The notes: a model not told the origin generated them from the sequence alone. Shown: positions 1,785 to 63,107, counted from the stretch's first letter. The stretch: DNA of 64,000 bases from Octopus vulgaris (GCA_951406725.2 OX597823.1:25234001-25298000), one strand, 5' to 3'. Made by a program: numbers and translations.

Positions 1785-2296
1785 AATAGGTGAATGAATT
1801 ATCCTATGTTTATCGTCAGCATGGAAAATTTGTTTAACCGAAACCTGGGTAGCAAATTCACGTCAGAAACACGGTTGAAGCGACCTGTCCAAGGGTAGAA
1901 ACTCCGGGTTCATGTGCAGAAATTTGTGTGTTGTATATGAATAAATGAAAGAATGGAGTCGAACGAAGATCTTAGCAAAATTCAACGTACCCTTCCCTCT
2001 CCACTTGTTCCCTACCTATTATTCCTTTAACCCTTCTCTTCCTACTATCTATCTTTGACGTCAATTCTTCTAACGTTTTTTTTTTAAAAACACTCATTAT
2101 CCTTTTGTTTACCATGTAGGCAGTCATCGAAATTTTTGTTTGTCTTGTTGTCGAGAAGAGGCCCCCTTTCTTTCCCCGATGAGAAGATTGCATAATGCAC
2201 CCTTTATTCCTTCGGAATGAAAACATGTTGTCTTCGAAACATATGTCGAGAGTAAAGGAATTTTGTTAACATCTTCGTTCGACTCCATTCTTTCAT
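1785..2296 (+). mobile_element. Hammerhead-bearing Penelope-pLTR-like mini-element in (TA)n, copy A only
   Basis: Flanked by (TA)n; 39-bp inverted repeat 1945-1983 / 2258-2296; HHR motif 2171-2252; absent from duplicate B. Confidence 0.6.
2171..2252 (+). ncRNA. Degenerate type I hammerhead motif
   Basis: CCGATGA (U4>C)-gaagattgcat...atgttgtcttc-GAAA-catatg-TC-gagag. Confidence 0.55.
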
Positions 2297-2332
2297 ATAT
2301 ATATATATATATATATATATATATATATATAT

Positions 2333-2836
2333 ACATCTAATATAGGATAAAATTTTTCGAAAAAATTTTTTATCAATGGCCAGCATATTAAAAAATATCT
2401 TTAAAGGTTAAATTTATAAACAAGGGCAAAAGAAAAAAATTTCTAATCCCAAATATGCCGAAACTAGACACATCGTCCATAACCATATAATTCATCACTA
2501 TAAGCACGCGTCTCGAAGAAAGCCGACAGAAATTTCTAAAAAATTCCGTTATTACCACATCGGACCCAATATGGTAATAACGGAATTATACCCATGGGTA
2601 TAAGTAAGTATTTCATTTATTCCTTTGCCGCATTTATCACTGACGAAGAGAAGGTTCTTATGAACTAACTCTGAAATCGAGTCCGATATGGTAATAACGG
2701 AATTTTTTAGAAATTCCTGTCGGCTTTCTTCGAGACGCACTCTGATAGTGATGAATTATATGGTTATGGACGATGTGTCTAATTTCGGCATATTTGGCAT
2801 TAGAAATTTCTTTCTTTTGCCCTTGTTTATAAGTTG
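2333..2836 (+). mobile_element. Hammerhead-bearing foldback mini-element (copy ~54101-54603)
   Basis: ~150-bp inverted arms 2414-2565 / 2681-2832 around an HHR; flanked by (TA)n. Confidence 0.7.
2635..2688 (+). ncRNA. Type I hammerhead motif (copy at 54402-54455)
   Basis: tatc(a)-CTGACGA-agag..ggttc ttat gaact..ctct-GAAA-tcgag-TC-cgata; one stem I mismatch consistent with CpG decay. Confidence 0.7.
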
Positions 2837-3004
2837 TATATATATATATATATATATATATATGTACTTTTGCTCTTAGGCAAGGCACATAACTCTACAT
2901 GTATCAATTTATCTGACTAACAAAACAACAACGATCGAAAATAGATGTAAAATGGTTTAATCATTCAAAATCCATTGAAAATTAGAAACAAAGAATGTGA
3001 TGAT

Positions 3005-58345: not shown

Positions 58346-59975
58346 TTTACTTTTTATCTTATATTAAACATTTTAATAATTTCTGATAGTTATATATATT
58401 TAAAAAAAATTTAATAAATATATAATTAAAAAAATAATATATATATATATATCTATATCTATATATATATCTATATCTATATATATATATATATATATAT
58501 ATATATATATATATATATATATATATATATATATATACACACACACACACACACACATATATATATTTATATATATATATAAAATTTAAAACTATAATAT
58601 AATAATTTAAAAATTTTTTAAAATTTTAACTTTAAATTTAAATAATTTAAATGTTGAATTTTATATTTTATATATTTTATATATTATATTAATTAATTTT
58701 ATTTCTATGTTTTGGTTTATGTTTTTCACTGTTTGATTTGCCTAATAGTGGTTTTATCTCTAATTCAATATATATATTTATACTGTAAAATTAGATTTAA
58801 TCCTAAATCTAATTTTTCCCTGTAATTTTTCCTCACTAATATATATATATATATATATATATATATATATATATATATATATATATATATATATATATAT
58901 ATATATATATATATATATGTATATATATATATGTATGTATGTATGTATATATATATATATATGCATATATATATATGTATATATATATATGTATATATAT
59001 ATATGTGTATATATATGTATGTATATATGTATATATATACGTATAGGTATATATATGTGTATATATATATGTATATATATGTATATATATATCAATCTAT
59101 CATTCTATCTACCTATCTATCTATCTCTCTCTCTATCTATCTATCTATCTATCTATCTATCTATCTATATATATATATATATATATATATATATATATAT
59201 ATATATATATATATATATACATATATATATGTATATATAATATATATACACACAAACAGGGTGCATATGATATTTGAGGGCAGATTTATGTATAAAAAAA
59301 CAGATATATAACAGATAATACCCTAACTTTAACCCTAATGCTAAACCTCATTCTGTCTCTCTTTCTCCCTTACTCCTTTTCTCTTCCCCCCCCCGAAAAT
59401 ACTCCTCTTCTAAACAAAACAACATCCTCTTTTCGATTTATATAAAAGACGGAAGAAATTTTCCCTGCATTAACTTAAAGAGTTCGATTGAAGGAACGAA
59501 AGCGCTAATATAGAATTATCCAAAATTCTGTTTGTCTCCCACCATTGCTTGACAACCGGTGTTGATTTGTTGACGTCCCCGTAACTTAGCGATAGAATAA
59601 GTAGTACGTTTAAAGAATTAGTACTAGGATTGACTCATTTCACTAAAACCCATCAAGCCAGTGCCCTACCATTGACGCAGTCTCGAAGAATATGTTAGAA
59701 AGTGCCACTCATGTGGCTAAACTACAGCATATTTTCCAAAATATTGAATAGTATACCTATAAATAGTATATTATAGCAACAAATAGTATAATAGGTGTTG
59801 GACCTAAGCACAGTATATTATAAACAAATATTTAGAAATTGAGTGTGTATATATTACATACATGCCATATATACCTGTGTGTAACTACTTAACTGCATGC
59901 ATATACTTGTGCCTGCTATATTTAATATTTGCGGATAGATAGAGGAATAACGGACATGGGTATATATCAACTCAC

Positions 59976-60073
59976 CATTGCGCGGTATGGGTAGGATATT
60001 TCTGATTCTATACCAAATATTCGGATATATCTGAATGCTTGGTCCATAAGTCCTCCGTCGCAGCCAGTGCTTC
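59976..60073 (-). CDS. Cathepsin L-like gene B, exon 5
   Basis: [33 protein letters not shown]; 98 nt, AG/GT intact. Confidence 0.94.
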
Positions 60074-62484
60074 CTGAAATGTTTGACAGGCAATTTTCTA
60101 TATATTAATTCTAAACTTTACAACGCGCTCGTACACACACACACACACACACACACACACACACACATTGCGGGGTTATATAAAATAAGTGTGGGATTCG
60201 GAAGTCATTGTTCCAAACTAATCATGTAAGAACAGAAAAGGGAAAAAATGAAACACCTTATGCTTGTCATTGCGTTACTTAGACTGTCAGTAACTCTTTC
60301 ACGTGATTAGAGAAAAAGAAAGAGAAAAGGAGAGAGAAATATAGGGAGAGACATGCATCCGTGACGTGAGGCAGAGGGAATGTAATTGTAACGCTTTGAG
60401 GAGAAAGAAAAAGGAGAGAGAAAATGAGGCGAAGAGTGAGACAGAAAGAGGGAGAGAGAAGCATTCATGACGTGAGGTAGGGGGAACGAAATGTTTATTA
60501 CGTGATTAAAGAAGTTAGTTGGAGGTAGAGGAGAGTTAAAAATGTAATTTTAGCAGAGGGGTGAAGGTGAAGTTAAAGAAAGGCAGAGATAGAGAAAGAG
60601 AGAGAGAAGGAGAGAGAGAGAGAGAGAGAGAGAGAGAGGATGATGGTGGCGGAGATAAAGGTTTTCGTAGTAATTGGATAGTAAAAAGTGTATTGTTTTA
60701 ATTGAACTAAGTTTTTTTATATCACCTATTACTTAATGCATGCGCATAAGTGCAATTCCGCGAAATATTCACGCTTATTTACATGCCAGACATATGCAAT
60801 TTAAATAAAGGTTGAATCATATGTACGAGATATATATTTTCATATTTGTTCATGGAAAAAATGGAAAATTAAGAGTGGATATATATTTTATGAGTACTGA
60901 GTATTAGGTCTAGAAAATTGTGCATAAAGCATATAAACTGTATATATATATATATATATATATATATATATATATATATATATATATATATATATATATA
61001 TATATAAAGTACATTAAGTTATCATCGTATTCCATTTTCTTTCAATTTACAATGAGTAGCAGATAAGCGACTATCTTTCCACACTGACATAATACAAGCT
61101 ACGCTTTCAGATTCTTAGGATAAAGTTTTCAGAAATAACCTAATAGGTTTACCATTAATTCAGTGAGATATTCACGGGTCCCGCTAGTATTTGTATAAAT
61201 ATGATACTCAAATATAGCTGTGTATTCTATATAAGATGTTTGAAAGAAAAGTTTTCCCATATATATATATATATATATATATATATACATATATGTGGGA
61301 AAACTTTATATATATCATATTAATTAGAGAAAAACCACTATTATGTAATTCAAACAATGATAGACATAAACTAAATCATAAATAAAATATAAAATATATT
61401 ATAAAACATATAACTAGATCACAAAAAGTACAAAAAATGAATATACAAAATATAAGTAAAAAGACTACGTTTATTTAATTTTATTAATCTGTATTTATTA
61501 TATGTGAACTAAAATCTAAAATTATTAAGTGTGATTGTTTTGTAAAATAGTTTGTAACATAAAATATTAGAGTATAACTAGTGAAAAGATATTTTATAGT
61601 TTGTTAATGCTATTCTCAAAACTAAAATATATCTTCACAGATAAATACATTTTTGTATCTATTTACTCTATTTTTTTACCTTAGGTTTTTAACATGATAA
61701 ATGTATTATAGACACCTGGTCCTACTTTTAAGTTTCAGATTTAGTTAACGGAGTTTCTTCTATAAGAACAATCATGATTTTATTTCTTTAAGAAATATTG
61801 TTTAATTCTATTTAATTATTTATTTAACTACTAATGTTATTATTGTTGACCTGAGGAGTGACTATACTTTCAACTGAATTGTTTTTCGATTAAAATTAAA
61901 TTTAATTGTAATTCAAATTGAAGTTATAGCCACGAATAGTACGTAGTCTTTTTTATTATATATTGTTTATTCATTTTTTGTACTTTTTGTGATCTAGTTA
62001 TATGTTTTATAATATGTTTTATTTTTCTTTAGAATATATAAGTCTATCATTGTTTGAATTACATAATAGTGATTTTTCTCTAATTTATATATATTATATA
62101 TTTATATAGTGAAAATTGATTTAGTAGATATATATATATATATATATATATATATATATATATATATATATATATATATAAAGGTTAAAGAACCCCTTAA
62201 GGCACAAGTCTGGGCATACGAGCCTCCCCACACCACGCAACCGATGTTATCCAATGACACAGCTTTGCACTAGTGACGCCGCACCTCATTTCTACAGCTG
62301 TGTGAATAGGAGCAACGTGAAATAAAGTGTCTTGCTCAAGAACACAATACACTGCCCGGTCCTGGAATCGAACTCATTACCTCATGATTGTGAGCCCGAT
62401 GCTCTGACCACCGAGCCATGCGCCTTTATATATATATATATATATATATATATATATATATATATATATATATATATTTATATA

Positions 62485-63107
62485 TATAGAATGAAGTGTT
62501 TTTTACAGAAAAAAAATTCCATCAAAAAATGTGGCAGCATATTAAAATACCTTTACGGTTAAAATTATAAACAACTTATAAATAAGAGCTAAAGAAAATT
62601 ATTTCAATGCCAATATGCTGATAACAGACTTTTAAATCGTCAATTTCCACATATTATTTACTCGCAACAGAAAAAAATACGAAGAACTGAAATCGGGGAA
62701 AGCTGGCCGATAGAATTTTAAAAAAAAGTTCGTTATTTCTATATTGAATCAATTTCGGAATTAATCTCATAATAGATTCTTTCCTCTTCAGTAGAACATA
62801 CGAAAGGATATAATTAAGATATTTACATGCGCCCATGGAAAGAAGCCGAGGCAAAAATCATGAGTACATATGAGTACCCTAGATATATCTAAAAATAAAA
62901 TTCTTTGGTCAGCCCCAGCACAACGTGTTGACTGTTCTCCACTACAGGTTATAGTGGTTACCAGTCCCTATAGCGAGTAGTAATATGTCTACTACTAATA
63001 TAGGTTGAAGTTTTTTTACAGAAAAAAAATTCCATCAAAAAATGTGGCAGCATATTAAAATACCTTTACGGTTAAAATTATAAACAACTTACAAATAAGG
63101 GCTAAAG
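62485..63107 (-). mobile_element. Partial-tandem (~0.5 kb monomer) hammerhead element; copy 9971-10499 lacks the ribozyme
   Basis: ~115-bp direct repeat at both ends (9971 and 10384 in A); ends similar to the 2333-2836 family; HHR at 62737-62796. Confidence 0.7.
62737..62796 (-). ncRNA. Type I hammerhead ribozyme, core intact, sense in gene B intron 4
   Basis: Minus strand: ttcta-CTGAAGA-ggaa(ag)aatct..agatt(aa)ttcc-GAAA-ttgattcaa-TA-tagaa; 5-bp stem I, stem II and stem III present, AUA cleavage triplet. Confidence 0.85.

Follow-up and report, generated by a model that had tools for sequence, protein, structure and literature searches.

Non-coding insertions with hammerhead ribozyme motifs in (TA)n tracts at a duplicated cathepsin locus of Octopus vulgaris

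Which enzyme moves the retrozymes of animals, and do they spread by retrotransposition or by tandem amplification? The question is raised by a 64,000-nucleotide stretch of the Octopus vulgaris genome (GCA_951406725.2, OX597823.1:25234001-25298000; the whole stretch is referred to here as the window) in which small non-coding elements with type I hammerhead motifs lie beside (TA)n tracts. There are six independent insertions in ten copies, and we consider them to be probably non-autonomous passengers of Penelope-like elements (PLEs), with one of them, element 5, a likely self-contained 396-nt unit of the retrozyme type. The initial annotation of this DNA had linked the elements to PLEs and retrozymes, and this link holds. 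A hammerhead in the end repeat, a palindromic stem III, inverted or partial-tandem ends and (TA)n targets are all PLE traits in published work, and (TA)n targeting has been described for octopus too. An autonomous, (TA)n-targeting, hammerhead-bearing octopus PLE, Hydra-1_Obim, is already published and the traits are all known (PMC8557442); what element 5 offers is one young insertion in which a closed unit occupies the target used by octopus Hydra-clade PLEs, and a helper pairing that can be tested.

Six insertions in two paralogous stretches

The elements are numbered 1-6 following the order of the initial annotation. Their second copies are accounted for, not by transposition, but by a segmental duplication of window 1-11393 (paralogue A) and 51669-64000 (paralogue B), with elements 2, 3, 4 and 6 present in both paralogues, element 1 only in A and element 5 only in B, the latter two at the corresponding TA tract. 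The copies and their main parts are as follows.

1785-2294, plus strand: element 1, found only in paralogue A, with a decayed hammerhead at 2176-2247 and (TA)n on both flanks
2176-2247, plus strand: element 1 hammerhead, core CCGAUGA, stem II base of 5 bp, stem III catatg, GUC
1947-1983 and 2258-2294: element 1 arms, inverted, 37 bp, with a one-sided extension of 162 bp at 1785-1946
2334-2836, plus strand: element 2 copy A, intact hammerhead at 2640-2688, inverted arms, left tail of 77 bp
54102-54603, plus strand: element 2 copy B, 2.4% from copy A, intact hammerhead at 54407-54455 with stem I of 6 bp and stem III of 5 bp
5354-6364, minus strand: element 3 copy A, interior flipped and shortened compared with copy B, hammerhead at 5754-5666 with C3 changed to A
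57222-58838, plus strand: element 3 copy B, GC 15%, intact core at 58252-58340, inverted arms, right tail of ~73 bp
58252-58340, plus strand: element 3 copy B ribozyme, stem II of 70 nt, stem III cgatcg, weak stem I
8675-9542, plus strand: element 4 copy A, intact hammerhead at 9219-9315, inverted arms of 165 bp, tail of 69 bp
9219-9315, plus strand: element 4 copy A ribozyme, stem II of 78 nt, stem III cgtacg
61307-62127, plus strand: element 4 copy B, core broken at 61851-61945 (GAAU, with stem III altered)
53456-54046, plus strand: element 5, 1.5 copies of a 396-bp unit with identical arms, found only in paralogue B
53814-53875, plus strand: element 5 ribozyme, intact, stem I of 5 bp, stem II of 43 nt, stem III ctgcag, GUC
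9971-10500, minus strand: element 6 copy A, a partial tandem from which a ~98-bp deletion took out the ribozyme
62484-63107, minus strand: element 6 copy B, intact hammerhead at 62791-62742, 111-bp direct repeat at a spacing of 514 bp

The insertions number six, as annotated, but they form four sequence groups and not six distinct ones, as elements 2 and 6 are ~70% alike from ribozyme to end and elements 3 and 4 are ~67% alike. Element GC ranges from 15 to 38% in a window of 35.8% GC where microsatellites are plentiful.

We scanned the 128 kb represented by both strands of the window with a strict type I descriptor that called for CUGANGA and GAAA without mismatch, at least 3 bp in stems I and II, a self-paired stem III, and UH. 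This returned five sites (2640, 9219, 53814 and 54407 on the plus strand and 62791 on the minus strand), every one inside an element and on the strand pointing toward the tail, compared with a mean of 0.01 and a maximum of one site in 100 block-wise dinucleotide shuffles, which bears out the claim of type I hammerhead topology; the non-coding insertions are likewise confirmed at the annotated coordinates. When one copy per element was scored for stem pairing, 63 of 72 cells were paired, against a mean of 36 with permuted 3' partners and with one of 720 permutations equal, though this score is partly built in by the descriptor used to find the motifs. Stem II is 26-78 nt long. The short palindrome expected of stem III is found in four of the six elements (1, 3, 4 and 5), where it is perfect and 6 nt long, and in elements 2 and 6 its place is taken by hairpins of 9-10 nt that form 4-5 pairs.

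The core is intact in six of the ten copies (2A, 2B, 3B, 4A, 5 and 6B) and hence in five of the six elements, with the stem I of element 3 copy B (57222-58838) having just two contiguous pairs. The remaining four copies contradict the statement that each element carries CUGANGA and a full core: element 1 reads CCGAUGA (U4 to C), the 5354-6364 copy of element 3 reads AUGAAGA (C3 to A), the 61307-62127 copy of element 4 has GAAU in place of GAAA, and the 9971-10500 copy of element 6 has lost the ribozyme in its deletion. A CUGACGA at 1819 on the minus strand was ruled out as the element 1 ribozyme as it has no GAAA partner, and loose core matches at 18012, 23648, 36238, 22377 and 18234 were discarded because stem I fails.

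Co-folding of two copies predicted pairing of stem III between copies in elements 1, 2B, 4A and 5, and not in 3B or 6B. This agrees with the dimer model for palindromic helix III (PMC4209133), for which it would be weak support, since any palindrome would do likewise.

Eight element ends were fixed through arm-to-arm alignment and without use of the microsatellite. For seven of them the nearest TA run is at most 22 bp away (at most 11 bp for six), with 2.8% of non-run positions within 25 bp as background. The abutment on (TA)n is thus confirmed for all of these eight but the 5' end of element 6 (63107), which is 630 bp from the nearest TA run; the 3' end of element 6 copy B lies within the TA tail of a repeat resembling a short interspersed nuclear element (SINE). 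Any target-site duplication is obscured by the (TA)n flanks. On the ribozyme strand all six elements show the same polarity: each stops at a TA run that lies 47-498 nt beyond the predicted cut site. The inverted or partial-tandem terminal repeats reported earlier are also seen, with elements 1-4 having a second, inverted copy of the 3' part at the left and a one-sided arm extension of 69-162 bp, and elements 5 and 6 a direct copy. The extensions of elements 3 and 4 resemble each other, as do the extension of element 2 and the end of element 6.

We note some further details of the arms. Those of elements 2 and 4 start inside ribozyme stem III (54311-54355 and 8826-8837) and those of elements 1 and 3 ~10-15 nt past the cut site, and where element 2 inverts there is a further 20 bp of sequence from beyond the cut. 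The ribozyme and the start of the arm may be connected. To the left of element 4 (8588-8675 and 61248-61307), ~14 flank bases are repeated inverted across the TA run before the left arm is reached, a pattern compatible with an insertion that involved snap-back at a TA hairpin. Element 3 has its interior inverted and shortened in paralogue A (5354-6364) compared with paralogue B (57222-58838), with the outer ends in the same orientation, and this flip is an inversion between its inverted arms after the duplication.

There is no open reading frame (ORF) of note in any element, as had been annotated, and no notable Pfam match in the element frames. None of the 144 non-repetitive window frames of at least 70 amino acids had a GIY-YIG or PLE-type match, and the reverse transcriptase matches in the window sit outside the elements in pieces resembling long interspersed nuclear elements (LINEs; 13329, 34912-36546 and 44318). 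An ORF starting downstream of the ribozyme, as in the anole PLE, was rejected as none of the frames is open there, and the gaps that distinguish element 2 from element 6 are out of frame. None of the six elements is an autonomous PLE.

All insertions cluster in ~9-kb stretches, 1785-10500 and the paralogous 53456-63107, although this is a post hoc observation. The 40 kb between them (11394-51668) has nine TA runs and no full copy, with one 32-bp match to element 3 at ~33926-33957, so that the dense set envisaged by the initial annotation is confined to the two stretches.

Element 5 as a closed unit, and the age of the insertions

Element 5 is a young insertion, because its arms are identical over 195 of 195 bp and it is present in one paralogue only. 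In elements 2, 4 and 6 the arms diverge by 3.5-4.6%, which is more than the duplicated flanks (0.4-2.0%), and these insertions are therefore likely to predate the segmental duplication; the decayed element 1 may have been lost from paralogue B. Recent mobility, which had been suggested for the whole set, is thus found for element 5 only.

A search of public runs with 53456-57200 listed 24 runs, 20 of them with all or part of the stretch, and provided contigs only. We compared the element 5 unit (53640-54046) with the contigs of four runs (X1, X3, X4 and X15) at 80% likeness; it should be noted that such contigs show no ends, strand, circularity or expression, and that summed contig depth is not copy number. 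The unit is 396 nt long with a GC of 35%. Contigs resembling element 5 numbered 260 in X1 and 1190 in X3, representing many variants, and X4 and X15, which come from two studies, each had one 426-nt contig consisting of 396 nt plus a 30-letter overlap, i.e. a closed loop. The two loops open at different points and are 11 and 5 letters, respectively, from the window copy, and the head-to-tail joint of element 5 was found in all four runs. As the joint occurs in several runs, with differing start points and variants, it is a trait of the family, and the view that element 5 is a self-contained retrozyme-like unit and not the stump of a long element is well supported by these contigs. For element 6 the 514-bp spacing is seen at one locus, and elements 1-4 show no unit; the non-autonomous nature proposed for all six is therefore supported for element 5 by the closed unit, and for the other five depends on the absence of an ORF.

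Conserved core bases and the palindrome are untouched by the 27 variant places listed for the family, one of which is the free position 7. A compensatory change is seen in stem I (53812 C>T with 53877 G>A, C-G to U-A) by which the pair is kept: record 14 of X3 carries both changes, judged from matching depths, and record 10 of X15 has the 53812 change and a loose end compatible with the 53877 change. Four of the 15 loose ends listed enter TA tracts (39 more were outside those listed).

A second subfamily of element 5 (X15 record 10 and X3 records 14-15) has CUGACGA, G-C at the base of stem II and GUA as the cut triplet. A metagenome scan with one 32-base element 5 motif gave no matches.

Judged by features at the sequence level, element 5 is probably a non-long terminal repeat (non-LTR) retrozyme, with one complete ribozyme at this locus where a recent preprint defines an 'active' retrozyme as two consecutive units with complete ribozymes (Li et al. 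2026).

Passengers of PLEs, and the alternatives

If the elements are PLE passengers, a (TA)n-targeting PLE protein of the Hydra or Neptune clade, acting in trans, would nick the microsatellite. Reverse transcription would be primed from either of two fixed positions within the RNA of the element, and the tail would correspond to the interval separating them; the enzyme might run on past one unit to give direct copies (elements 5 and 6), or make a second, short inverted copy (elements 1-4). As element 5 spans the predicted cut site twice, its template would be either a multimer that had not been cut or a circle formed by re-ligation. Monomers would arise when the ribozyme cleaves multimeric transcripts, with a palindromic stem III favouring the two-copy fold, and after insertion a lone ribozyme copy would be free to decay, as four of the ten have done.

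The layout is explained by published findings on PLEs. PLE insertions include partial tandems, frequent inverted 5'-truncated copies and a one-sided tail of 30-40 bp, and (TA)n is preferred by several PLE clades (PMC8557442). Hydra-1_Obim of Octopus bimaculoides combines a (TA)n preference with a 3' hammerhead (PMC8557442 supplement; Craig et al. 2021), and Hydra-clade ribozymes have stems III of 3-5 bp with tiny loops (PMC8557442 supplement). Reverse transcription by an anole PLE begins at two internal sites of the RNA that lie downstream of the hammerhead and define the tail, with AT-rich DNA as the target and uncut RNA as the main template (PMC11167929). A re-ligated circle has been proposed as the template for retrozymes, with PLEs named as a candidate mobiliser (PMC7229834), and the 2026 preprint describes PLE-retrozyme kinship and co-occurrence only (Li, Clavereau and Pollet 2026, bioRxiv 10.64898/2026.07.22.740005). 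The host has 31 recently active PLE families (PMC13282606), and hammerheads have been noted in the giant squid (PMC6962438).

The metazoan non-LTR retrozymes (Cervera and de la Pena 2020, PMC7229834; Li et al. 2026), for example the 350-390-bp mussel family, are one closest system. They share a type I hammerhead in a small, low-GC non-coding unit arranged head-to-tail (as in element 5), a mollusc host, and a PLE named as the likely mobiliser. In contrast to these, the octopus copies are dispersed 1.2-1.5-mers or inverted forms in (TA)n with one complete ribozyme, stem II measures 26-78 nt, and the self-pairing of element 5 is not exceptional; the words 'octopus' and 'microsatellite' are absent from the main text of PMC7229834. 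Hydra-clade PLEs, including Hydra-1_Obim, share the hammerhead near the 3' end, a short stem III with a tiny loop or none, (TA)n and the host genus, and PLEs in general the partial-tandem and inverted structures and one-sided tail. By eye, the stem II base and stem III of elements 2, 3, 4 and 6 resemble the Hydra-clade ribozymes (PMC8557442). Unlike these PLEs, however, the octopus elements have no reverse transcriptase or GIY-YIG ORF, their tails are 69-162 bp, and their ends lie 47-498 nt from the cut site compared with ~35 nt in Hydra-1_Obim. The PLE hammerheads with a small palindromic helix III (Drosophila virilis Penelope, rotifers and shrimps; PMC4209133) are similar in their short stem I and long stem II, their many divergent families per genome, and their single and opposite-strand copies; the octopus stem II is several times longer than their 6-8 bp, and the stems III of elements 2 and 6 are long enough for monomer folding. 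Non-autonomous Chlamys elements such as MRC1 (PMC8557442) are also PLE passengers that form pseudo-LTRs (pLTRs) and head-to-tail copies in a clade that prefers microsatellites, but they belong to green algae and mostly lack the canonical hammerhead.

Several observations weigh against PLE passengers of this kind, and we give them together. The anole PLE ribozyme is dispensable for insertion in vitro (PMC11167929), and eight of nine frog retrozyme dimers failed to cleave (Li, Clavereau and Pollet 2026). The octopus tails exceed the published 30-40 bp, and no locus within the window has two complete ribozymes. In the Rfam scan recommended in the initial annotation, the window had 84 matches at E<=1, none to a hammerhead family and all of them microsatellite look-alikes under their family thresholds; we infer that the miss is due to the long stem II. 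None of six short exact element motifs was found in the consensus set of the PMC8557442 supplement, and no autonomous partner is linked to the elements within the window and this motif search. Unit status was checked for one of the six elements, element 5, and in circular folds compared with 40 shuffles each the element 5 monomer was not more structured than the shuffles (z -1.3, with z -4.8 for the element 6 unit and z -5.3 for its opposite strand). If the 27 variants were spread evenly, all 18 places of the core and palindrome would escape change with a probability of ~0.3 (a hand estimate), and the X4 loop has 53877 changed without 53812, which breaks the stem I pair and would reflect either decay of the copy or a chimeric path. 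Contigs this short end where the assembly branches, so that a long ORF-bearing relative could escape notice, and 39 loose ends lie outside those listed.

A broader proposal, which we regard as tentative and rather less than probable, is that octopus has several abundant microsatellite-targeted retrozyme families, with small ribozyme circles, very long in stem II, copied into (TA)n by Hydra-clade proteins and leaving the full PLE scar of copies longer than one unit, inverted arms and tails. If true, this would be a direct and dated example of dispersed animal retrozyme retrotransposition with a nameable helper, and the elements would be the first cephalopod retrozymes described within the literature searched. 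We found no report of octopus retrozymes in that literature, although repeat libraries (Repbase and Dfam) and supplements may already contain families. Element 5 by itself shows that mobile DNA with a ribozyme, overlooked by Rfam, makes up some of the 'low-complexity' sequence next to octopus microsatellites.

The alternative that fares best, which we nonetheless think unlikely, is that elements 1-4 and 6 are 5'-truncated 3' ends (pLTR stumps) of autonomous PLEs and that only element 5 is a true unit. PLEs usually give rise to 5'-truncated copies whose arms are inverted or in tandem (PMC8557442), most minimal hammerheads of animals are single and tied to truncated PLEs (PMC4209133), and elements 1, 2 and 6 carry just ~70-210 nt upstream of the ribozyme, within the range of a 3' untranslated region. 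Elements 3 and 4, however, have ~730 and ~380 nt of ORF-free, 80-85% AT sequence there, compared with a stop codon ~125 nt before the ribozyme in Hydra-1_Obim (read from the PMC8557442 supplement), and by eye no frame upstream of any ribozyme resembles a Hydra-clade endonuclease end.

It is quite improbable, in our view, that DNA recombination is the main route by which element 5 spreads, as a tandem satellite, with the inverted elements being repair fold-backs at TA hairpins and the ribozymes passengers from old PLE ends. A closed contig fits a circle or a perfect tandem array equally and the joint occurs in DNA runs, local tandem amplification of PLE ends has been proposed (bioRxiv 10.64898/2026.07.22.740005), element 3 was rearranged at the DNA level, and flank bases show an inverted duplication across the TA run left of element 4. 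Element 5 is nevertheless a lone 1.5-mer that has identical arms and is confined to one paralogue, other short element 5 copies are TA-flanked, and the ribozyme-to-end polarity is the same in all six elements. That the motifs are chance folds in AT-rich, inverted-repeat-rich DNA is hardly credible, for despite the lack of an Rfam hammerhead match, the two contiguous pairs in stem I of element 3 and the four broken or missing cores, there are five strict sites where 0.01 are expected, all in elements and on the strand toward the tail, and the element 5 family has a compensatory change and varies at the free position 7.

The cathepsin locus and neighbouring repeats

A papain-family exon at 4413-4679 has 94% identity to a cathepsin L1-like protein of Octopus sinensis. 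This protein maps to the minus strand as seven exons of 91-100% identity in 3008-19685 and as four exons of 97-100% in 54856-63991, giving the following features.

3008-19685, minus strand: cathepsin L1-like gene of paralogue A, seven exon matches
51669-64000, unstranded: duplicated segment, paralogue B, a copy of window 1-11393 with four cathepsin exons

The unique flanks of the duplicated segment diverge by 0.4-2.0% between the paralogues. We considered whether paralogue B might be a mis-assembled haplotype, and this is disfavoured; A and B are more likely to be true paralogues because the exons differ from the reference protein by 6-9% in amino acids. Elements 3, 4 and 6 are intronic in the cathepsin gene, and elements 1 and 2 lie beyond the stop codon. 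Intronic ribozymes in the cathepsin sense (5666-5754, 9971-10500 and 62742-62791) are lost in two of three copies and antisense ones in one of three, numbers that are too small to infer selection.

The minus-strand matches form a tandem cluster of cathepsin L1-like genes (3008-19685, 31205-33774 and 54856-63991) made up of two young paralogues and an older one. The upstream exons of the older paralogue (31205-33774) are seemingly severed by a LINE at 34098-36549, which has endonuclease and reverse transcriptase frames of 298, 222 and 322 amino acids and a GC above its surroundings, and looks young. No tRNA genes were found in the window, and two decayed coding pieces on the minus strand, 11690-12723 and 20454-20777, gave no Pfam match; they resemble a restriction-like-endonuclease retroelement and a DNA transposon. 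A SINE-like repeat of ~250 bp is arranged in head-to-tail partial tandems at 24495-25131, 27215-27584 and 32487-32897.

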